Positions 10,671 to 63,964 of a stretch of DNA of 64,000 nt are shown here, in pieces. A model generated the notes under the pieces. That model made no database searches. It was not told the origin of the DNA and was given only the letters and a program-made list of their open reading frames with translations. Made by a program: the position numbers and the translations under genes. This DNA comes from Candidatus Aenigmatarchaeota archaeon (lineage in GTDB: Archaea > Aenigmatarchaeota > Aenigmatarchaeia > PWEA01 > JACQIF01). Position 1 is the first letter of the stretch, and the number at the start of each line of letters is the position of its first letter. Where the stretch lies: assembly GCA_016432325.1 (NCBI GenBank), contig CP066684.1, forward strand, positions 714,112 through 778,111, read 5' to 3'.

Positions 10671-11963
10671 ATGGACTTCATGTCTGTGAGAGAGGCCATG
10701 GAACAGGAAGGCGGAACGGCCGCGCTGCGCGGCTGGTGCTCTACCGTGCGCACGCAGAAGACCACGGTTTTCATAATCCTGCGCGACGGAACCGGCCACA
10801 TACAGGTCACGTTCAAAGAAAGCGACACGGACGCCAAGACGTTCAAGGCCGCGTCAGAACTTACGACCGAATCATCCGTAACGCTTACAGGCACGGTCGC
10901 AAAGGACGCACGCGCGCCCGGCGGCTTCGAGGTCAAGGGGCGCACGCTTGACGTTGTGCAACTGGCCGAACCATATCCCATCGCCCGCGACAAGTCCCCG
11001 GAGTTCCTCATGGATCAGCGGCATTTGTGGATTCGTTCGCCGCAGATGACTGCGATACTGCGCGTGCGCTCGACGGTCTTCGGAGCCATACACGAATACT
11101 TCCGCTCGCAGAATTATTTTGAATTCCAGTCTCCTACGTTAACGAAGGCCGCTTGCGAGGGAGGTCCGACACTCTTCAAGGTCGACTACTTCGGAGACGA
11201 AGTTTTCTTAACGCAGTCGTGGCAGCTCTATGCGGAAGCAGGGATTCACGCTCTTGAGAAGATTTACTGCATTGCTCCTTCGTTCCGCGCGGAGAAGTCG
11301 CGCACGACGCGCCATCTCACAGAGTACTGGCACGCGGAGTGCGAGGCAGCGTGGATGGACTTGGACGGACTGGCGCGCGTGGCGGAAGGATTGATTTCGC
11401 ACATCTGCGCACGCGTCGCGGAGAAGAACCCTGAAGACTTGCGCACTCTCGGACGCGACCCCAACGATTTGCTCAAGATAACGCCTCCGTTCCCACGCAT
11501 CACGTACACCGAAGCGCTTGACATGCTGGCGAAGAAAGACGGCATCAAAATCAAGTGGGGCAAAGACCTCCGTACGGAAGAAGAGCGCGCGATTGCGCAG
11601 CATTTCGAACGTCCTGTCATAGTGACGCGCTATCCCAAGGAGATAATGGCCTTCTACAAGCCCGCGGATCCAAAGGATCCCAAGGTCGCTCTATGTTTCG
11701 ACGTGCTCTGCCCTGAGCTCGGAACAGAAATAATCGGCGGCTCGCAGAGGGACGCGGACGTGAAGGCCATGATAAAGGCGTTGAAGAAAGAAGGCGCTGA
11801 CCCGAAGTTCTATGACTGGTATTTTGCGACGCGACGTTACGGCGGCGTGCCTCACTCGGGCTTCGGCATGGGAGTGGAGCGCGTCATCCAGTGGATATGC
11901 AAGCTGGAGCACATCCGCGACACGATACCGTTCCCGAGAATGATGAATCGGTATTATCCTTGA
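10671..11963 (+). CDS. asnS: asparaginyl-tRNA synthetase (archaeal type, with OB-fold anticodon-binding domain)
   Basis: PSFRAEKSRTTRHLTEYWHAECEAAWMDL, EIIGGSQRD and RRYGGVPHSGFGMGVERV...IPFPR match archaeal AsnRS rather than AspRS (which has GAQR / PPHGGFGLG). The N-terminal LRGWCSTVRTQKTTVFIILRDGTGHIQV is the OB fold. Confidence 0.88.
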   Translation: MDFMSVREAMEQEGGTAALRGWCSTVRTQKTTVFIILRDGTGHIQVTFKESDTDAKTFKAASELTTESSVTLTGTVAKDARAPGGFEVKGRTLDVVQLAEPYPIARDKSPEFLMDQRHLWIRSPQMTAILRVRSTVFGAIHEYFRSQNYFEFQSPTLTKAACEGGPTLFKVDYFGDEVFLTQSWQLYAEAGIHALEKIYCIAPSFRAEKSRTTRHLTEYWHAECEAAWMDLDGLARVAEGLISHICARVAEKNPEDLRTLGRDPNDLLKITPPFPRITYTEALDMLAKKDGIKIKWGKDLRTEEERAIAQHFERPVIVTRYPKEIMAFYKPADPKDPKVALCFDVLCPELGTEIIGGSQRDADVKAMIKALKKEGADPKFYDWYFATRRYGGVPHSGFGMGVERVIQWICKLEHIRDTIPFPRMMNRYYP

Positions 11964-12579
11964 GGCTCATGACAATCCCTTCGACTTCTTTCATTACGTC
12001 TTCCGTCTTCGCGCGCTGTTGTAGCTCGTAAATCCCATTCAACACGCCTTCCACGACGAGTTGTTCTAGTGTAGCGCCTCCTCGACGCATCCTCTTTGCG
12101 TGTTCCGCATAGCCCATTGCGAAACTGACGTCCAACAGTATGTCATAAAGGCTGTTTTTACCATCATTGAAACCGTTTACGTGCCGCGTCCATTTTATCC
12201 GTGCACAACACCGCAACCAACAAGACATTCTTTCGTTGTATGTTATGCATGCGCCTGTCGCCGCCTTTGCCACACGCGATATCTTATCCGGAACTGTTTT
12301 ATCGCCCAATACAATATGATTTTCTGATAGGATATTTTCAATCGCATAGTCCCTCAACATCACGGCCTTCTGAAAGTTGTGCGGTGTCAGGAACATCACG
12401 TCCACCCATTTCCCCGTCTGAGCCTCGATTTTCCTTAGCACGTGGTGTGCTCCCTCCAGGGAGCCTACGTACACCACGTCAACATCTCCGGCATCCGCGC
12501 CCTTCCGCAGGTACGAGCCGTATATTATCACAAACTCGCCTTGCGGCACTTCCAAATCCAGTTCCCGAATCGCTAACAT
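11884..12579 (-). CDS. Pol-beta-superfamily nucleotidyltransferase with a helical C-terminal domain carrying an Rx4-6H (HEPN-like) motif
   Basis: IIYGSYLRKGADAGDVDVVYV is the minimal NTase GS-x(n)-DxD motif. CCARIKWTRHVNG contains R-x5-H. SD AGAGG lies 8 nt upstream of the ATG. It is the last gene of the micro-ORF operon. Its 3' end overlaps the convergent asnS by 80 nt. Confidence 0.55.
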   Translation of the reverse strand: MLAIRELDLEVPQGEFVIIYGSYLRKGADAGDVDVVYVGSLEGAHHVLRKIEAQTGKWVDVMFLTPHNFQKAVMLRDYAIENILSENHIVLGDKTVPDKISRVAKAATGACITYNERMSCWLRCCARIKWTRHVNGFNDGKNSLYDILLDVSFAMGYAEHAKRMRRGGATLEQLVVEGVLNGIYELQQRAKTEDVMKEVEGIVMSLKDNTDSSFSGTVSCRGCAPACISTG

Positions 12580-12629
12580 TCTCTCGCCTCTTATTGGTGC
12601 GCAGGGTCTGCAGCCCCGGCGCGTTCGTT

Positions 12630-12809
12630 TTATCCTAGCCTGAATCCGTCCCTGTACGGGACGAGTTTCCCCGAGGGACTTACGTGCGAAATGTCCACGT
12701 GCGGATACGGGTGGCCTCTCGACGAATGGATGTCGCTTATGACGGCCACGCTGCCGAACTCATTTAGGTATCCAAGTCGCATTTCCCTCATCGATGTCGG
12801 TACACTCAT
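12630..12809 (-). CDS. micro-ORF 4 (59 aa): MSVPTSMREMRLGYLNEFGSVAVISDIHSSRGHPYPHVDISHVSPSGKLVPYRDGFRLG
   Basis: Below the 60-aa cut-off of the ORF track. SD AGAGGTGA lies 4 nt upstream of the ATG at 12809. It is packed 31 nt after micro-ORF 3. Confidence 0.5.
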   Translation of the reverse strand: MSVPTSMREMRLGYLNEFGSVAVISDIHSSRGHPYPHVDISHVSPSGKLVPYRDGFRLG

Positions 12810-12840
12810 GTCTTCACCTCTTTGTTTTTTGTTCGTCGTT

Positions 12841-12984
12841 TCATCTCAGTCCACGCAACGCGTAGCTCTGTTCCAACGCGCTCATGTACAGCCCGGGTGG
12901 CTGCATCAGGTCGCTGGGCAGCGTGCCGCCGTACGGTATCGCGCTGTAGTGGCCCGGTCCGATCACTGGTCCTTGTCCGCTCAT
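12841..12984 (-). CDS. micro-ORF 3 (47 aa, Gly/Pro-rich): MSGQGPVIGPGHYSAIPYGGTLPSDLMQPPGLYMSALEQSYALRGLR
   Basis: Perfect SD GGAGGTG lies 7 nt upstream of the ATG at 12984. Not in the ORF track because it is under 60 aa. Confidence 0.5.
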   Translation of the reverse strand: MSGQGPVIGPGHYSAIPYGGTLPSDLMQPPGLYMSALEQSYALRGLR

Positions 12985-13021
12985 CGTTTTCACCTCCGTT
13001 GAACTTTTGTCGCGATGACAC

Positions 13022-13132
13022 TCATCGTCCCTTGTACTGTTTCATGCCGGCCTGACAGTTGGGACAGCACGGGTCAAACCCCGGCGGTCCGGGACAGTAC
13101 TCGGCCGACAATCTACTTGCGTACGTTTCCAT
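13022..13132 (-). CDS. micro-ORF 2 (36 aa, Cys-rich): METYASRLSAEYCPGPPGFDPCCPNCQAGMKQYKGR
   Basis: This is the tail of track ORF 13022..13252. The ATG at 13132 lies 5 nt after the stop of micro-ORF 1, with GGAGGG 12 nt upstream. Cysteine pattern C-x9-CC-x2-C. Confidence 0.4.
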   Translation of the reverse strand: METYASRLSAEYCPGPPGFDPCCPNCQAGMKQYKGR

Positions 13133-13137
13133 CACTC

Positions 13138-13326
13138 CTACCGCCCTCCGACGAGTTTCGCGTGCCCTTCGTACGCCGGGTTTCCGGCCAGCACGTCTCC
13201 CATTCTCTGTATGTACGCCCTGTCCGTCGACCAGTCCCAGCTCTGCGCCCACTTCTTTCTCTTCGCCGGCGCGCCTGGAATGAAGTACGACGGGCTTTCT
13301 TCATCCGTTCCCAATTCGTTCACCAT
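13138..13326 (-). CDS. micro-ORF 1 (62 aa): MVNELGTDEESPSYFIPGAPAKRKKWAQSWDWSTDRAYIQRMGDVLAGNPAYEGHAKLVGGR
   Basis: This is the tail of track ORF 13138..13395. SD AGGAGGTG lies 7 nt upstream of the ATG at 13326. It is the first gene of the operon. Confidence 0.5.
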   Translation of the reverse strand: MVNELGTDEESPSYFIPGAPAKRKKWAQSWDWSTDRAYIQRMGDVLAGNPAYEGHAKLVGGR

Positions 13327-13502
13327 TTCCAAACACCTCCTTTGTTTTTTTGTCGCGTTCTTTGGTCCTGCGTTGTCCGCAGGGTTGGAACCCAATTGAT
13401 TAGCGCCACCATAAAAAACAGTCGTGTTACAGCTAACTGAAAGGATAAATAGTTGTACGGTTAACTAATTATAACGAAAAACGTTAACCCAAACGGGAGC
13501 GC

Positions 13503-13510
13503 TATATAAG
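13503..13510 (+). promoter_or_regulatory. TATA box (TATATAAG) for the leaderless 13533 gene
   Basis: Centred 26.5 nt upstream of the ATG at 13533, in an AT-rich divergent intergenic region (13396..13532). That region also carries a TATA-like ctatttatcc (minus orientation, around 13445) for the micro-ORF operon. Confidence 0.55.
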
Positions 13511-13532
13511 GTTAATCTGTGGTGTATGAAGA

Positions 13533-14315
13533 ATGGACAAGGAGATAACACAGATTGTGTTTTTGGGTAATCCATACCATATGGAGAGGATAAGATACCT
13601 TCTAAGAAAACGCATTCCGCAAAAGGTCTACTTCATAGAGGCCGAGGAGAACAATCACAGGGAGGAAGCCAAGGAGATGGCAGAAAAGATGCGCTCCGAG
13701 CTTGAGGGGAATCTGCCGCGATGGGTGGTGGAAAAATCGGAGTTCACCGCTGTACCATTTTTTGACTTCACATCCGCTTTCATGAAACTAATCTCTATCA
13801 TGCACAACGAGATTAGGCAAGACAGAGACGTTCTTGTCAACGCCCACGGCGGCAGCGTGATAGTCACTACAGCAGCCCTCTTGGCAGCTAACGCTACCGG
13901 AGCAAAGGTATGCTGGGTTGAGCCCGAGAGCTGGGGGTTTGTAGAAATGGGAGGCCACGTTTCACATATGGCCAAAGGAGCCAAGGGCATCAAGGAGGTG
14001 GCGATTCCAATAAGCCTTGGAGTACCTGAGGGAGTGGACGCCAGCGTCCTCGGACATATCTACAGCAGAGGAGGAACCGTTAAGGGCAGACTGTCCGCCA
14101 TAACGGAGGACGTGGGCCTAGACAAGCTCGGCGCGAACGTGAAGAAGTCCAGCTCGGGCGTCGTGAAGCTCTCGAAGACCCTCGGCCGCCTCCGTGCGAA
14201 AGGCCTCATAGAGACGCGCAAGCTTGGCAGGAAATCCTTCGAAATCAAGCTCACCAAAGACAAGGGAGAGGTCGTGGGGAAGGTAGTGAGTCTGGTGTTA
14301 GAGAAAAGCATTTGA
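13533..14315 (+). CDS. Csa3/HFX_2341-like regulator: Rossmann-like (CARF-like) N-domain plus C-terminal winged helix
   Basis: The architecture parallels Csa3. The N-terminal strand is QIVFLGNPYH, followed by FDFTSAFMKLISIM, then VLVNAHGGSVIVTTAALLAA, then a wHTH (VLGHIYSRGGTVKGRLSAI...VVKLSKTLGRLRAKGLIETRKLGRKSFEIKLT). This is pattern resemblance only. Confidence 0.5.
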   Translation: MDKEITQIVFLGNPYHMERIRYLLRKRIPQKVYFIEAEENNHREEAKEMAEKMRSELEGNLPRWVVEKSEFTAVPFFDFTSAFMKLISIMHNEIRQDRDVLVNAHGGSVIVTTAALLAANATGAKVCWVEPESWGFVEMGGHVSHMAKGAKGIKEVAIPISLGVPEGVDASVLGHIYSRGGTVKGRLSAITEDVGLDKLGANVKKSSSGVVKLSKTLGRLRAKGLIETRKLGRKSFEIKLTKDKGEVVGKVVSLVLEKSI

Positions 14316-14319
14316 AGCT

Positions 14320-15732
14320 ATGCGCCTCAACGTTACCGTGTCTTATCAGGAACATTTAAAGAAGCTAAGGGAGCATCTGAGCAAAGAGAATATCCCCTTC
14401 GCCGACCAATTAGACGCCGTCTATGCCGAGATGGCAGAAATCGATAAAAAACTGCAGATGTCTTACCCGCGGCCCGACGCCCTCATCCTTTGCGGAGGCA
14501 ACGGAACCAGATTTGCGGAAGGCAAGAAACCAAAGGTCCTCGCCGAGGTCAATGGAAGAATCCCATTGGAGTATACAATCGACACGCTCGCAAAACTCAA
14601 CTTCGACAAAGCCTTCATATCCGTTGGAGGCCCTCACGGAGACTCCATTAATGCCCACCTGAAAGAGATGGAGGCAAAACCAATCGGGCTGCTTGGACTA
14701 ACGTCGAGGCCAACAATCATCGAATCCGTAGATTACGGCAGACTCATGTCACACCTACACCACATATCGAAGGCCAACGGGAAGCTGATTGAAAACGGGT
14801 GCGAGCCGCTCAATCCAAACCTATTTGACAACGAACTAGACACGATTGTCGGGGTTGCGGCAGTTGCGTACACCGCCGCGACTCAACCGCCCCTTACAGT
14901 CGTGCTCGGCGATTCTATCTACCAAGAAGATGCCATATCATGGGCGTCAGGGTACTATACAATCGAGGCAAACATGGGCTTGACGGAGATGATGCCTGGC
15001 ACACGGGGAATATCGCCACGATTTCCATACATAAAGCCGCTCGTCCATGTTATGGAGAATTCAACAGAGGCGTATAAGGCGCCAGTCCCCAAGATTCATA
15101 AATTATTCTCCGTTCGCAAAGGCCCCCTTTCCTTTGATATCGGGCGTGCCGTTGGGTTCACCGAACACAGGACAAAACGAGTTGCCATATCGGTTGTAAG
15201 CCCATTGCCCTTCGACTACAGGATTATCTTCAGAGATAACGACGATCCAGCTGGACGCTCTCTCCCCCTCACCGAGGACGGGTCCCGAATAGACATGGAG
15301 AAGATCGCGTTACCGGGGATTTCTTACGGAGGATTCCTTTCGCACCTGAAAGAGGTCCAGTCCATATTCCCGCCGCTGGAAACAGGAAGTCGCCAGAAGC
15401 CTGCGCGCCTGCCACCATCGGACGCTACGCTCGAGCTTGCCGAGGCTACCTCGTCGCTGCTTGTGATGAGAACAAACTTCAAGTACTTCGACATCGACGA
15501 CGAGGAGACGCTTGCCGCGGCCAACGACGTTGACATAAAGGAATTTATCGCCAACGATCCACTAAGCATCCTGGAGAAGTCGACGCCCGGATACAGAAAA
15601 CAGTTTCTGGAAAAGCTTAACGAGGCCAGACACCGCCACCAACATACGTTCCGTGCTACAACTGGGGGACTCGGGAACTTTAAAGACCTCTATCAGTATG
15701 CGCTACGTGCATTTCGTAGACACACCGGATAG
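14320..15732 (+). CDS. protein with an N-terminal sugar-phosphate nucleotidyltransferase (NTP_transferase) motif and a large uncharacterised C-terminal region
   Basis: ALILCGGNGTRFAEGKKPKVLAEVNG is the GxGxR...K signature of GlmU/RmlA-type NTP transferases. It begins 4 nt after the preceding gene. Confidence 0.5.
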   Translation: MRLNVTVSYQEHLKKLREHLSKENIPFADQLDAVYAEMAEIDKKLQMSYPRPDALILCGGNGTRFAEGKKPKVLAEVNGRIPLEYTIDTLAKLNFDKAFISVGGPHGDSINAHLKEMEAKPIGLLGLTSRPTIIESVDYGRLMSHLHHISKANGKLIENGCEPLNPNLFDNELDTIVGVAAVAYTAATQPPLTVVLGDSIYQEDAISWASGYYTIEANMGLTEMMPGTRGISPRFPYIKPLVHVMENSTEAYKAPVPKIHKLFSVRKGPLSFDIGRAVGFTEHRTKRVAISVVSPLPFDYRIIFRDNDDPAGRSLPLTEDGSRIDMEKIALPGISYGGFLSHLKEVQSIFPPLETGSRQKPARLPPSDATLELAEATSSLLVMRTNFKYFDIDDEETLAAANDVDIKEFIANDPLSILEKSTPGYRKQFLEKLNEARHRHQHTFRATTGGLGNFKDLYQYALRAFRRHTG

Positions 15733-15915: not shown

Positions 15916-16024
15916 GCTCCGGTAGTTCAATTGGCAGAATGCTACGCTGTTAAACACTCCGCTCAAAGGGGCGGGTGCAAGCGGAGACGTAGAGACGGAG
16001 GTTCGAGTCCTCCCTGGAGCGCCA
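15916..16024 (+). tRNA. tRNA-Asn(GTT), canonical 37/38 intron (34 nt), CCA encoded
   Basis: Acceptor GCTCCGG/CTGGAGC plus G plus CCA. D arm GTTC-AATTGGCA-GAAT. Anticodon arm CTACG-CTGTTA[15953..15986]A-CGTAG. T arm GGAGG-TTCGAGT-CCTCC. The intron has a CTCCGC/GCGGAG helix. Mature length is 72 nt. A weak TATA (ctttacgt, 15884..15891) is centred 28.5 nt upstream. Confidence 0.9.
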
Positions 16025-20339: not shown

Positions 20340-23300
20340 GTGAAAAACCATAGGACGTTCTTGCTGACACTGTTCGCAGCGGCAATATTAATGGGCCCAT
20401 CGGCTCTCGCGCAGACTCCCGATTATCTGAACATAGACGCCGGAACGACTCCGGACGACCCGTTCTACTTCTTTGACACGACGTGGGATGGCGTCCAGAT
20501 GTTCATCGCAATCAGCCCAGAAGACAAGGCGGCGCTCGCCGCGGAAATCAGCGCGGAGCGCTTCGCCGAGATGCACCAGATGATGGAAGAGAACAACTGG
20601 GTGGCGGCCCAATCAGCGGCGCAAGGCGCCGAGTCGTGGACGGGCCAGTTCGCCACTGCGCTTGAGAGCCTGCCGCCTATTGTTGATCCTGTTGCTCTTG
20701 CAGAGATAGGAGAACTTTCTCATTATGTTAACGACTATTCAGATGCCGTACATGAGCAGTATGAAGAGCTTCTGGCGTCCGGCGAGCTTGATGAGGCGAC
20801 GGCAGACACGCTGCCTGTAGACGCCCTTGTCGAAAGCACTGTTGACGCCCAGGCCGGTTATGTCGAAGCCAAGGACGAGGTCATAGCGGCCGCGGCCGAG
20901 GAACAGGGAATCACGCAAATAGAGGCCGGGATACAGTACTCCAATGCCGAGGAGGATGTGGGCCTGACAGACGTGCAGAAGGATGCGGTCGCTACGGAAC
21001 TCGTGGACGCGCGAGATGCGGCGACTGAACTTGAGGAGGCGTACTTGGCTCTGCCTGACGGCGAGGAGAAGCTCGTCCTAGGCAACATGGTGGAGGACGC
21101 GAAGCTCAACCTGCAACAGAGCGAGTACCTGTTCAAGGCGGGCGATTATGACGCAGCTTCCGGCAATCTCATCGAGGGACAGCACTGGATATTCAACGCG
21201 CAGGACTACGCTGGCGGCGAGCTGACCGAGGACCAAAAGGCCGCCTTTGAAGAGCAGTTCACGAACGTGGAAGCCATAAGGGACGAGGTAACGGACGGGA
21301 GCGCGACTTTCGTGGAAGAGTGGGAAGCCAACAAGGACGCCCTGACAGCCGCATATCCTGAAGAGGCGGCGATTCTTGAGCAGCGCTTCGAGCAGGAGCA
21401 GAACGTTGTTGCTATAGCGACCGCCCTTGAAGAATCATATTCAACAGAGCTCAACGACCTGATTACGGCAGGCGAGGACCCGTCAGAGGCCGCTCGGATA
21501 TTGGCGGCGCAGCAGGCCGACGAATACAGGAAGGCATACGGCGAGGAGTTCGTTCCTCCGGGATTCATCGTAACGGGTGAGATTGAACTGCCTGAAGGAG
21601 CCGATGCAACTGCGGTAGAGAATTTCGCCGATCCTGAAATCGCGGCTGGCGCAGGCGGCGGCTTCGTGATAGGAACGCAGTACGTTGATCCAGTCACGGA
21701 TTACAAGTATGAGTTCGTCGAAACGGGCTGGAGATTCACGACTCCGTCCGGCCAGGCATACGAGCATCCATATCCTGAAGGATACGAACCGGCGTCCGCC
21801 TTCGAGAACGGCAACGAAGAGTACAGTTATACTGTCGACACTCCAGAAGGGCTCGCTCAATATACGTATACTCCTACCGGATACGAAGTCGTCACGCCTG
21901 AAGGAACGACCGAAACTTATGCTTACACGCCCGGGCAGTATAAGCTTCCTGACGGCAAGACAGTGAACTACAAGCCGACCGGCTACGAGATAAGGGACGG
22001 CGCGGTCGTCGAGGCAAAATACGATTACAATCCCGAGTTCAACGCCTACGCGTCCGCCGACGGCACGGTCTACAGGCCGCCTGACGGGGCGTACTACCAC
22101 TACAAGACCGACTACAGCGCAGTCGAGGGAAAATACACTTATGCCGCGGGCAGCGACACGTGGACATACGATCCCAAGACCGCTTCGTGGGCTTCCGGAG
22201 GCGGAGAGACCTACAAGCCGCCCACGGCCGTCGTAGCGCCTGTCGGTTACGAGTCTGACGGCGTTTACCGCTCGCCATCAGGCGTCAGATGGGATTACAA
22301 TTCTGGCACAGGAACGTGGGGATCCACAAGCGGGGAATCCTACAACTCTGCAAACGGCGCGTACCGCTCTGCAACAGGCGCCACAACCACGCACGCTTAC
22401 GATTACAGCAGGCCAACCTACGGCTACGATGCGAGAACGCAGGAGTACAGGTTTGACACCGTGACGCGCGAAGGCACAGGCACGTGGACATACAACCCGC
22501 AGGCGAACATCTGGACGTCAGGCTCTGGAGAAACTACAGAAGCAAGTCGCGGTTACGTGCCGCCTACCACGTTGAACTACCCAACGCCCGTGGCGTATCA
22601 GTCTCCATCGTTCTATCCATACCCATCGCCAGGACAGGCGTACGTGACGCCGGCTCCTTACCAGACACCGTCTTACCAGACTCCCAACTTCGCTTACCAG
22701 ACTCCTTACTACTCCTACCCCTCGCCCTCGTACGTTTACCCGTCGCCCGGCACGTATCCAACGCCTTCGTACGTCTACCCCACTCCGTACCAGTACCCGA
22801 CACCGGGAAATACATACCCGTCGCCATACTACGCCTACCCAACTCCGGGACAGTACTACCAGACGCCAAACTACTACATCTACCCGACGCCAAGCTCCAC
22901 GTACCCAACGCCTGCGTACACATACCCGTCTCCCTACTACTCTTACCCTTCGCCGTCTGACTCCTACCAGACTCCGTACTACGCTTACCCGTCTCCATCC
23001 TCTTACCCAACGCCCTCATACACATATCCAACTCCGGGAACAGAGTACGCTTACCCAACGCCTTCGACCACAGGATATTCGTACCCATCGCCTTCGTACG
23101 CGACACCATACACCTATCCCACTCCGGGCTCGTACCCAACACCATACTACCAGAGCCCCACGTACTACGCTTACCCCACGCCTTCCGCAGACTACGTGAC
23201 GCCAACATACTACTCGTACCCGTCGCCGTCTGAAGGCAGCTACCCGTACCCAACGCCTTCATACCCGTCTCCGTATTCGTACCCGACACCGGGAACCGGC

Positions 23301-23693
23301 TACTCGTATCCGTCGCCTTCGTACAGCTACCCGACACCTTCGTCATACACATATCCGACCCCGGGCAGCGCATACGGATATCCGTCGCCTTCGTACACGT
23401 ACCCATCCCCGACGGGTACTTACGTAACGCCTTCCTACTCGACGCCCTCATACGCCTACCCGACTCCAACAGAGGGAGGTTACTCGTATCCATCGCCTTA
23501 CCCGTATCCAACGCCGTCCGAGGGAGGTTACCCGTACCCAACGCCTTACGCGTCTCCGTCCGAAGGATATTCGTACCCATCGCCTGGTTCGTACCCAACT
23601 CCGTCCGAAGGTTATGCCTATCCAACTCCGTACGGAACTCCTGAGTCGTACGGCACACCATACGACTACCCATCTCCGTACGGCACGCCCTAG
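20340..23693 (+). CDS. large secreted/surface protein: signal peptide, acidic helical N-region (DUF5667-like), beta-rich middle, and a ~375-aa Y/P/T/S low-complexity tail
   Basis: 1117 aa. N-terminus MKNHRTFLLTLFAAAILMGPSALAQ. DDPFYFFDTTWDGVQMFIA...AERFAEM resembles DUF5667. The tail is made of YPTPS / YPSPS / YQTP units and has no C-terminal TM helix. GTG start, with a TATA (gatttatata) about 35 nt upstream. Confidence 0.8.
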   Translation: MKNHRTFLLTLFAAAILMGPSALAQTPDYLNIDAGTTPDDPFYFFDTTWDGVQMFIAISPEDKAALAAEISAERFAEMHQMMEENNWVAAQSAAQGAESWTGQFATALESLPPIVDPVALAEIGELSHYVNDYSDAVHEQYEELLASGELDEATADTLPVDALVESTVDAQAGYVEAKDEVIAAAAEEQGITQIEAGIQYSNAEEDVGLTDVQKDAVATELVDARDAATELEEAYLALPDGEEKLVLGNMVEDAKLNLQQSEYLFKAGDYDAASGNLIEGQHWIFNAQDYAGGELTEDQKAAFEEQFTNVEAIRDEVTDGSATFVEEWEANKDALTAAYPEEAAILEQRFEQEQNVVAIATALEESYSTELNDLITAGEDPSEAARILAAQQADEYRKAYGEEFVPPGFIVTGEIELPEGADATAVENFADPEIAAGAGGGFVIGTQYVDPVTDYKYEFVETGWRFTTPSGQAYEHPYPEGYEPASAFENGNEEYSYTVDTPEGLAQYTYTPTGYEVVTPEGTTETYAYTPGQYKLPDGKTVNYKPTGYEIRDGAVVEAKYDYNPEFNAYASADGTVYRPPDGAYYHYKTDYSAVEGKYTYAAGSDTWTYDPKTASWASGGGETYKPPTAVVAPVGYESDGVYRSPSGVRWDYNSGTGTWGSTSGESYNSANGAYRSATGATTTHAYDYSRPTYGYDARTQEYRFDTVTREGTGTWTYNPQANIWTSGSGETTEASRGYVPPTTLNYPTPVAYQSPSFYPYPSPGQAYVTPAPYQTPSYQTPNFAYQTPYYSYPSPSYVYPSPGTYPTPSYVYPTPYQYPTPGNTYPSPYYAYPTPGQYYQTPNYYIYPTPSSTYPTPAYTYPSPYYSYPSPSDSYQTPYYAYPSPSSYPTPSYTYPTPGTEYAYPTPSTTGYSYPSPSYATPYTYPTPGSYPTPYYQSPTYYAYPTPSADYVTPTYYSYPSPSEGSYPYPTPSYPSPYSYPTPGTGYSYPSPSYSYPTPSSYTYPTPGSAYGYPSPSYTYPSPTGTYVTPSYSTPSYAYPTPTEGGYSYPSPYPYPTPSEGGYPYPTPYASPSEGYSYPSPGSYPTPSEGYAYPTPYGTPESYGTPYDYPSPYGTP
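22560..23693 (+). repeat. degenerate in-frame tandem repeats encoding (Y-P-[TS]-P-[SG]-x-Y)n
   Basis: Repeated tacccaacgccttcg / tacccgtcgcc units are visible throughout. The long antisense ORFs here (for example 22564..23673) are by-products. Confidence 0.8.
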
Positions 23694-35983: not shown

Positions 35984-36232
35984 ATGATGTGCAACATTTC
36001 GGCATGCGATGAGAGCGAATACGACTACCTCGAATCGAGGCTGACAGCATTCGCCGAGGCCGCGCACAAGCAGCTGCTTTTCGAGAAGATAAAGCAGAAG
36101 ATAGAGGAGAAGGAAGGCGCGAAACTCGACAAGATAGCCGACCTGCTCGTGGACGCGTTTTCGAGCGAGCAGAACGCGGAGAGAAGCCGCGAAGAGTTCA
36201 GGGACAAGCTGAGAGAAACGTTTGAGGAGTAG
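35984..36232 (+). CDS. hypothetical acidic helical protein (82 aa)
   Basis: SD GGAGGTGA lies 6 nt upstream of the ATG. The flavin reductase-like gene follows 2 nt later. Confidence 0.55.
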   Translation: MMCNISACDESEYDYLESRLTAFAEAAHKQLLFEKIKQKIEEKEGAKLDKIADLLVDAFSSEQNAERSREEFRDKLRETFEE

Positions 36233-63799: not shown

Positions 63800-63964
63800 T
63801 CAGTTTGTCTTGATGTCTTTGTATCTATCGGGCAACTTCAACGTCTCCACTTCTCCGTCGTCGAGGCTCGGAAACATCGCATCGTAAAAACAATCCACAT
63901 ACCTCACGAACGGTCTCCCTTTCTTTACTTCTTCGAACAACATTTCATCTCGTGCTTCTTCCAT
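63800..63964 (-). CDS. possible micro-ORF (54 aa): MEEARDEMLFEEVKKGRPFVRYVDCFYDAMFPSLDDGEVETLKLPDRYKDIKTN
   Basis: SD-like GAGGTGG lies 6 nt upstream of the ATG at 63964. Below the track cut-off. Confidence 0.3.
   Translation of the reverse strand: MEEARDEMLFEEVKKGRPFVRYVDCFYDAMFPSLDDGEVETLKLPDRYKDIKTN

Follow-up and report, generated by a model that had tools for sequence, protein, structure and literature searches.

Seven predicted products are encoded between asnS and tRNA-Asn(GUU) in a 64,000-nucleotide stretch of the genome of a Candidatus Aenigmatarchaeota archaeon (GenBank assembly GCA_016432325.1, contig CP066684.1, positions 714,112 to 778,111), referred to here as the window. On the minus strand, four micro-open reading frames (micro-ORFs), m62, m36, m47, and m59, lead to a nucleotidyltransferase (NTase), NT231; divergently on the plus strand lie a regulator, HFX260, and an NTP-transferase, NTP470 (Table 1). 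An initial annotation had proposed that these genes form a single module reminiscent of toxin-antitoxin or nucleotide-signaling defense systems. Every feature that it listed was found in place, and its reading of the flanks, with asnS on the left and tRNA-Asn and gatCAB on the right, was borne out.

The four micro-ORFs are separated by spacers of 5, 37, and 31 nt, and m59 is followed by NT231 after 50 nt; the 3' end of asnS overlaps the convergent NT231 gene by 80 nt (11884-11963). Two Logan contigs carrying the locus (groundwater runs SRR12113430 and SRR12113385) were 100% identical to the window, with no polymorphism. Among species representatives of the Genome Taxonomy Database, the closest asnS reaches 60% identity at most, and in none of the 80 closest genome loci reached via asnS did any of the seven products have a relative.

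TABLE 1 Coordinates of features in the window and in related loci (aa, amino acids)
Feature	Sequence	Coordinates	Strand	Description
asnS	Window	10671-11963		Left boundary of the block
NT231	Window	12579-11884	-	231 aa; predicted Pol-beta-superfamily nucleotidyltransferase with helical C-terminal domain
m59	Window	12809-12630	-	59 aa; HPYxHVDxxHV motif; conserved NT231 partner
m47	Window	12984-12841	-	47 aa; Gly/Pro/Tyr-rich; probable orphan gene
m36	Window	13132-13022	-	36 aa; Cys-rich; possible ORF
m62	Window	13326-13138	-	62 aa; first gene of the minus-strand operon; probable orphan gene
Divergent promoter region	Window	13327-13532		206 nt; AT-rich, 41% GC
Motif CATAAAAAACAGTCGT	Window	13410-13425	+	16 nt; unique in the window
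HFX260	Window	13533-14315	+	260 aa; Csa3/HFX_2341-like CARF plus winged-helix regulator
NTP470	Window	14320-15732	+	470 aa; divergent sugar/alcohol-phosphate nucleotidylyltransferase (MobA-like/GT-A fold)
tRNA-Asn(GUU)	Window	15916-16021	+	Rfam RF00005, 55 bits; right boundary of the block, then gatCAB
Tandem repeats	Window	22674-22996, 23480-23515		Units of 21/42 nt and 18 nt
Small ORF	Window	35984-36232	+	Strong Shine-Dalgarno site; 82-aa acidic helical protein
Small ORF	Window	63800-63964	-	Strong Shine-Dalgarno site; ~54 aa
Probable paralogous locus with CARF-winged-helix gene and NTP-transferase gene	L083	6754-10055		QQG39393.1 and 409-aa protein
Regulator and NTP-transferase operon	L087	8001-15976
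HFX_2341-like regulator and divergent operon	L088	1-8810
Divergent genes, secreted type	L089	5610-7391
Divergent genes, secreted type	L090	2-1246		Many N-x-S/T sequons
Divergent genes, secreted type	L092	1-1323		Many N-x-S/T sequons
Promoter motif CATAAAA(A)ACAGTCGT	L090	1271-1284
Promoter motif CATAAAA(A)ACAGTCGT	L091	1255-1268
Promoter motif CATAAAA(A)ACAGTCGT	L092	1348-1361
CHAT-protease genes	L095	1-1721, 9456-11309		Flank the cassette
ATP-grasp gene	L095	2020-3225		Weakly MvdD-like; 50-aa ORF nearby

NT231 and its micro-protein partner

NT231 is predicted to be a Pol-beta-type NTase whose catalytic triad is intact and whose C-terminal domain is helical. The minimal NTase motif recognized initially (GS...DVDVV) corresponds to G21-S22-x9-D32-V-D34, which is invariant in all four known members of the family, with D60 present in three; residues 15-93 matched the PADLOC profile PDC-M05A (E = 1.5e-6), and fold matches agreed with the NTase assignment. 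The NTase-only relative P0016 (94 aa) matched Pfam Polbeta (1.5e-8) and NTP_transf_2; NT231 itself fell below the Pfam thresholds. The family is extremely small. A word-indexed search of 5.8 billion proteins with NT231 returned only the window's own protein, and of 1.84 billion cluster representatives scanned exhaustively with HMMER, three proved related: P0014 (219 aa, 30% identity, E = 1.5e-19), P0015 (214 aa, 27% identity, E = 4e-11), and P0016. A scan of metagenomes with the NT231 alignment found only NTase-domain relatives of another layout, with the NTase domain placed at the C-terminus, as in a 237-aa protein of locus L096.

An AlphaFold2 model of NT231 built from the four-sequence alignment (predicted local distance difference test [pLDDT] 77, predicted template modeling [pTM] score 0.76) consists of an alpha/beta NTase domain, five helices, and a disordered tail, residues 209-231. 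Sequence and profile searches of the PDB with NT231 gave only noise. In a Foldseek search of the same database the top twelve matches were HalB chains (E = 1.7e-4 to 4e-3 over ~219 columns, TM score 0.44-0.51), followed by the uncharacterized NTase 3c18, AAD(9), MntA, AadA, and KNTase, with LinB also listed; the Foldseek probability was 0.92-1.0 for the HalB and MntA matches. The tail has a pLDDT below 50, a non-coding-like codon usage, and no counterpart in the two relatives, so that the natural end of NT231 may lie upstream.

The C-terminal domain had been described as HEPN-like. The R-x5-H motif on which attention had fallen is present (R127-x5-H133), where the first long helix of this domain ends; it is Rx5H in P0014 and Rx4H in P0015, and the family alignment also retains Y114-N115, H133, and G156-Y157-x-E-x-A-x-R163. 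The HEPN designation itself was not upheld. HEPN profiles from Pfam and PADLOC gave no family at E <=1 against NT231, P0014, or P0015, and a separate model of the isolated domain (pLDDT 78) matched nothing in the PDB at E <0.7, with no HEPN-annotated entry among the 50 best matches listed, a search in which all-helical domains are hard for Foldseek and a distant relationship of the KNTase-C-domain type could escape. Because both the profile and the fold searches found no HEPN, we do not call NT231 an NTase-HEPN fusion; it is predicted to be an NTase joined to a HalB/ANT-like helical domain.

Outside the window, the pair formed by m59 and NT231 is known from two metagenomic contigs, each with small ORFs led by Shine-Dalgarno (SD) sequences. 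In L094 a 66-aa ORF and an 80-aa ORF precede the transferase, and in L095 the transferase is preceded by a 65-aa ORF and followed by an ORF of ~87 aa. The product of m59 aligned with that of the L094 80-aa ORF, directly upstream of the NT231 relative, with a Smith-Waterman score of 108 (z = 15.9), and when the window's 1408 six-frame segments were searched with a hidden Markov model of the L094 protein, the m59 frame was the sole hit (E = 4e-9). Substitutions between the two, as proportions of synonymous (pS 0.85, saturated) and nonsynonymous (pN 0.35) sites, point to conservation at the amino-acid level; this is the outcome that the initial annotation had asked of the micro-ORFs, and it was obtained for m59. 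The micro-protein is better conserved than the enzyme (46% versus 30% identity to L094), and its conservation extends along the whole C-terminal part. A search of the word-indexed collection with the m59 alignment returned only itself or known members. The 65- and 66-aa ORFs of L095 and L094, which we term A-type, are homologous to each other (z = 30, ratio of nonsynonymous to synonymous rates 0.36); m47 was considered as a further A-type relative and rejected, pairwise and profile tests being negative. On this homology m59 is a true gene, and m59 and NT231 are, by comparison of the three loci, the conserved core of the minus-strand operon.

L095 has a GC content (guanine plus cytosine) of 0.63 and encodes very acidic proteins, and its host is therefore probably haloarchaeal. 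Its cassette is flanked by two CHAT-protease genes, an arrangement that fits a mobile, conflict-type element, and the occurrence of so rare a pair in distantly related hosts suggests horizontal transfer of m59/NT231. Neither NT231-family proteins nor m59, m62, or m47 were found in viral contigs or in phage or plasmid records.

Two other functions of this core were weighed. NT231 could be a small-molecule NTase of the ANT/Lnu/AadA type, acting on an antibiotic or metabolite, with the micro-ORFs as unrelated operon mates. The catalytic motif is intact, and AAD(9), AadA, KNTase ANT(4'), and LinB share with NT231 the layout of an NTase followed by a helical domain; these matches are, however, weaker than those to HalB (TM 0.25-0.39, E >=0.02) and come without sequence similarity. 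The resistance genes also have no counterpart of the conserved micro-protein neighbor, and the retention of an m59 homologue, at higher identity than the enzyme, beside the transferase in very distant genomes makes this reading unlikely. It is very improbable that the micro-ORFs encode precursor peptides of a ribosomal natural product, with NT231 as a tailoring or immunity enzyme. Several tandem small ORFs with strong translation signals would suit such a pathway, as would the N-terminus MSxxPxGN that the L094 and L095 ORFs share ahead of variable C-termini. The m59 C-terminal part is nevertheless conserved throughout, like that of a folded protein, and no protease, transporter, or enzyme of the RiPP (ribosomally synthesized and post-translationally modified peptide) class was recognized beside the cassette in the window. 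The weak MvdD-like ATP-grasp gene on L095, with its nearby 50-aa ORF, also speaks for the precursor reading, but its match is below threshold (E = 0.008) and it lies 4 kb off.

Translation signals and coding evidence in the micro-ORFs

The initial annotation counted four SD-led micro-ORFs, three of them with a near-perfect site at 4-7 nt. The latter statement holds for m62 (GGAGGTG, 7 nt before its ATG), m47 (GAGGTGA, 5 nt), and m59 (GAGGTGA, 4 nt), all of which are gene-like; the fourth, m36, starts 5 nt past the m62 stop codon without a well-spaced SD sequence, and its translation would need coupling to that of m62. GGAGGTG or GAGGTGA occurs 4-7 nt before an ATG at five sites on the two strands of the 64 kb, and three of the five fall within the 520-nt micro-ORF stretch. 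Most genes of the window evidently do not rely on strong SD sites, and for this reason we do not regard the cluster as a chance occurrence. The other two sites also precede small ORFs (<=82 aa; Table 1), and strong SD sites seem to be reserved for micro-proteins in this genome.

As DNA, the start regions of m62, m47, and m59 are alike, an A-rich tract coming ahead of the SD sequence (repeat families D1 and D4). That of m47, GAGGTGAAAACG-ATGAGCG, encoding an MSG N-terminus, is similar to those of the small ORFs beside the NT231 relatives, and one start-region motif, GAGGTGAAAAC-ATGAGYG, is common to m47, m59, and the small ORFs of L094 and L095, as is an MS(G/V) N-terminus.

Coding potential was scored with a codon log-odds model trained on 36 long ORFs of the window, in which true 50-codon windows scored 0.36 +/- 0.18 and wrong frames -0.51 +/- 0.38. 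The scores of m62 (0.40) and m47 (0.37) are gene-like, a value as high as that of m62 being reached by 0.3% of wrong-frame windows; those of NT231 (0.14) and m59 (0.10) are atypical. The score of m36 (-0.02) is uninformative: it is the highest of the six frames and yet lies between the coding and non-coding distributions. The Logan and NCBI gene finders call m62, m47, and m59 and leave m36 uncalled. All the products (36-62 aa) are hydrophilic, with a grand average of hydropathy of -0.11 to -0.77, and no paralogue of any micro-ORF was found within the window. Details of the earlier description need amending: m62, at 62 aa, would pass the 60-aa screen from which all the micro-ORFs were said to be absent, and the Cys-rich character of m36 is confirmed with the pattern C-x8-CC-x2-C rather than C-x9-CC-x2-C. 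The Gly/Pro-rich micro-ORF is m47, which is rich in Tyr as well.

We considered whether m62, m36, and m47, m59 excepted, are chance ORFs in a long structured or A-rich leader, an explanation to which we give little weight. None of the three has a homologue in the collections searched, and m36 offers neither an informative codon score nor a spaced SD sequence. On the other side, fewer than 0.5% of wrong-frame windows score as high as m62 and m47, whose near-perfect SD sites at 5-7 nt are rare in the genome. A non-coding RNA or riboswitch in the leader was also tried and rejected, since no Rfam family matched even at E = 1 and the folding z-score, -1.1, was not unusual; this also tells against a structured leader. 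We regard m62 and m47, with their strong SD sites and gene-like codon usage, as probably genuine, lineage-specific orphan genes, and m36 as a possible ORF.

The regulator/NTP-transferase pair and the divergent promoter

HFX260 passed the cut-off of Pfam PF19810 (HFX_2341_N; E = 3.6e-11, 44 bits versus 30) and matched the PADLOC CARF3 model over nearly its full length (residues 7-246, E = 1.6e-13), in agreement with the initial description of a divergent Csa3-like protein with CARF and winged helix-turn-helix domains. Weak matches were obtained to TIGR01884 Csa3, Csm6, Cas_APE2256, and the winged-helix family PF22665 (E = 0.021), the last of which is recorded for 6 of the 11 HFX260 homologues; sequence similarity to solved CARF proteins was marginal (E = 0.5). 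The homologues are 35-47% identical to HFX260, and the two that are named come from metagenome-assembled genomes of Aenigmatarchaeota. HFX_2341, which acts as a global repressor in Haloferax mediterranei, matches Csa3a strongly in HHpred and has no link to CRISPR (PMC11434293).

The sugar-nucleotidyltransferase motif assigned to the 470-aa protein was likewise substantiated. NTP470 matched NTP_transf_3 at residues 54-106 (E = 9.5e-8, 32.8 bits versus a cut-off of 27) and carries the N-terminal signature ILCGGNGTRF...KPK (GxGxR...K); its family profile matched LicC (2.5e-10), UDP-glucose pyrophosphorylases, and GlmU in the PDB. The C-terminal ~350 aa lie beyond the recognized domain. One or more NTP_transf_3-like genes follow the HFX-like gene in five of seven distinct loci (the window, L083-86, L087, L090/91, and L092). 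L083, from the same samples and with a GC content of 0.56, carries a CARF-winged-helix gene and a 409-aa NTP-transferase that is 25.5% identical to NTP470 over 392 aa (E = 5e-14), and it is probably a paralogous copy in the same genome.

On the divergent side, the HFX-like genes have a different neighbor at each locus. L083 has the same divergent layout as the window, without sequence similarity there: an SD-led 53-aa ORF, a 90-aa ORF, and a 209-aa phosphoribosyltransferase-like (nucleotide-metabolism-like) protein. HTH regulators are the divergent neighbors in L087, where five divergent NTP-transferase paralogues and a NUDIX protein come after the HFX_2341-like regulator, all in one operon. 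In L088 the neighbor is a nucleotide-metabolism operon with genes for Ham1-like, AAA_17 kinase, dCTP deaminase, thymidylate-synthase-like, two QueC, and Asn-synthase-like proteins, possibly a nucleotide or DNA modification pathway. Signal-peptide-like N-termini mark the proteins encoded by the neighbors in L089, L090, and L092, and sequons abound in the L090 and L092 proteins; these secreted-type, partly sequon-rich products hint that the regulator/NTP-transferase pair is tied to surface glycosylation. The divergent neighbors are mutually unrelated and show no likeness to NT231 or the micro-ORFs.

The HFX260 ATG is preceded at ~28 nt by a TATA-like CTATATAAGG box, with equivalents in the homologous loci, and this spacing suggests that the HFX260 mRNA is leaderless. 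The motif CATAAAAAACAGTCGT lies 107 nt upstream of HFX260, and its counterparts lie 109 nt upstream of the HFX-like genes of L090, L091, and L092, conserved although the HFX_2341-like proteins are merely ~46% identical. On the other strand it reads ACGACTGTTTT(TT)ATG, which is TATA-like and falls ~25-38 nt before the divergent genes of L090 and L092. We consider it a probable TATA/operator element of the divergent promoter; were it to serve as the TATA element of the micro-ORF operon, the leader of that operon would be ~60 nt. Because the motif keeps a fixed distance from HFX-like genes, the micro-ORF operon seems to use a promoter region belonging to the regulator gene, and since the two units share this conserved region it is plausible that HFX260 controls the micro-ORF operon locally. 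Such control would be ordinary local regulation and not evidence for a signaling defense system.

These data bear directly on the proposal that all seven genes constitute one nucleotide-signaling defense or toxin-antitoxin module, in which a nucleotide produced by NT231 or NTP470 would be sensed by the CARF protein, leading it to turn on the micro-ORF/NTase operon. The 206-nt promoter region common to both operons, with a motif that stands at constant distance from HFX-like genes and reads as the TATA box of the opposite promoter, can be cited for it, as can the parallel layout of L083 and the binding of nucleotide-derived ligands by CARF domains (PMC8844856, PMC8699464). The regulator/NTP-transferase pair nevertheless recurs with unrelated divergent neighbors, and m59/NT231 recurs in two contigs in whose DNA no HFX260 or NTP470 homologue was detectable, a point that depends mainly on L095 because L094 spans only 1.4 kb. 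Nor was a HEPN fold found for NT231 or a CRISPR-type tandem-repeat array in the 64 kb; no cyclase gene was noticed, in the course of work that did not include systematic annotation of the window, and HFX_2341 is a repressor of global, housekeeping type. Of the single-module claim, the shared promoter region and possible local regulation stand; a single seven-gene unit is unsupported, each of its two parts recurring apart, and we regard it as distinctly unlikely.

Two proposed units back to back and the closest known systems

We tentatively favor, with somewhat less than even confidence, the view that the block comprises two independent units placed back to back, the minus-strand one being toxin-antitoxin-like or guard-like. 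The plus-strand unit is a probably leaderless two-gene operon of HFX260 and NTP470, a pair conserved in Aenigmatarchaeota-like loci, and would most likely combine a ligand-responsive regulator with an enzyme for nucleotide-activated metabolites under its control. The minus-strand unit would be a horizontally acquired cassette of strongly SD-led micro-genes ending in NT231. Its transcription probably starts at the divergent promoter, which accompanies the regulator gene, and the regulator may therefore control it locally. By analogy with MNT-type systems, NT231 would nucleotidylylate its micro-protein partner or partners, or hold them back with a nucleotide product that it makes; in MntA/HepT it is AMPylation that the partner undergoes.

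Several observations weigh against this view. The mechanism proposed for the minus-strand unit is an analogy with other NTase pairs, and the linkage of m59 with NT231 is anecdotal at three family members; the L095 small ORF resembles m59 weakly (p ~0.003) and in the N-terminus only. The match of NT231 to HalB has a root mean square deviation of ~6.4 A at 15-17% identity, with a TM score of ~0.5 that is moderate only. No HalA-like membrane protein is encoded in the operon, whose micro-proteins are hydrophilic, and no homologues of m62, m36, or m47 were found in the neighbor loci, viral contigs, or plasmids, the large protein databases not having been searched. There is also little sign of foreign origin: the GC content of the block dips slightly (0.52-0.54 versus 0.56), and neither an integrase, an att repeat, nor a second tRNA-Asn copy was found at the block. 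An integrated element at tRNA-Asn was accordingly rejected as a candidate, there being no tRNA repeat, no integrase, and merely the slight GC dip. In a few other archaea asnS lies near gatA/gatB, which weakly suggests that the block was inserted.

The initial statement that no described system has this gene order was upheld, and the systems closest to parts of the block differ from it in identifiable ways. In Hailong, HalB makes a tyrosine-primed oligo-dA that holds the HalA channel closed (Tan et al. 2025, as summarized in PMC13434031). NT231 equals HalB in size (~220 aa) and in domain order, the Pol-beta NTase at the N-terminus coming ahead of a helical domain; its top full-length structural matches are HalB chains (E = 1.7e-4, TM 0.47-0.51), and in both systems a short operon places the partner gene directly upstream of the transferase. 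The differences are that NT231 lacks sequence-level similarity to HalB, that the partner here is a soluble protein of 59-87 aa and HalA a transmembrane channel, and that the present cassette has extra micro-ORFs and an archaeal host.

PDC-M05 is an archaea-enriched candidate system of an NTase and a HEPN protein, with M05A as the transferase half (PMC12988326). NT231 resembles this and MntA-HepT in its NTase domain, which matches both the PDC-M05A profile and MntA structures, and in belonging to a two-gene NTase cassette of the archaea-enriched kind. It differs in that no HEPN partner or domain is present, NT231 carrying its own helical C-domain, and in that the partner is a novel micro-protein; PADLOC profiles gave no M05B match among the seven products. 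The matched NTase region is C-terminal in M05A (108-190 of 201) and N-terminal in NT231. For HFX260, the likeness to Csa3 and HFX_2341 lies in the HFX_2341_N and end-to-end CARF3 matches and the C-terminal winged helix. Its 64-kb surroundings, in contrast, are devoid of a CRISPR-type repeat array, and it is conserved together with an NTP-transferase, an association that has not been reported. This recurrent pairing, in some loci beside secreted, sequon-rich proteins, hints that nucleotide-activated metabolites may be what these widespread CARF regulators sense when unconnected to CRISPR.

In a more far-reaching form of the proposal, which we hold to be improbable, m59, NT231, and the micro-proteins would represent a new class of archaeal conflict cassette, in which a HalB-like transferase restrains one or more micro-protein effectors through nucleotidylylation or a self-primed oligonucleotide and, in this DPANN genome, has become wired to a CARF-winged-helix sensor by the bidirectional promoter that accompanies the regulator gene. 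Micro-proteins are systematically under-annotated, and few defense or toxin-antitoxin systems are recognized in DPANN archaea (PMC12988326). If the m59/NT231 pair is real, it would add a new partner type to the two-gene NTase systems exemplified by MntA/HepT and Hailong and, at 59 aa and 231 aa, would be a tractable target for in vitro study.

The remaining observations concern the surroundings of the block. The tRNA-Asn gene was detected by Rfam only, ARAGORN reporting no tRNA in the whole window; its anticodon was read from the sequence, an intron of ~34 nt follows the anticodon loop, and CCA is encoded. The genes gatC, gatA, and gatB were named from Pfam labels, and with asnS, tRNA-Asn, and gatCAB as neighbors the direct and transamidation routes to Asn-tRNA lie side by side. 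Further downstream, the two sets of tandem repeats (Table 1) sit in strongly negative GC skew, and translation of their units in that frame would yield Tyr/Pro-rich peptide repeats.

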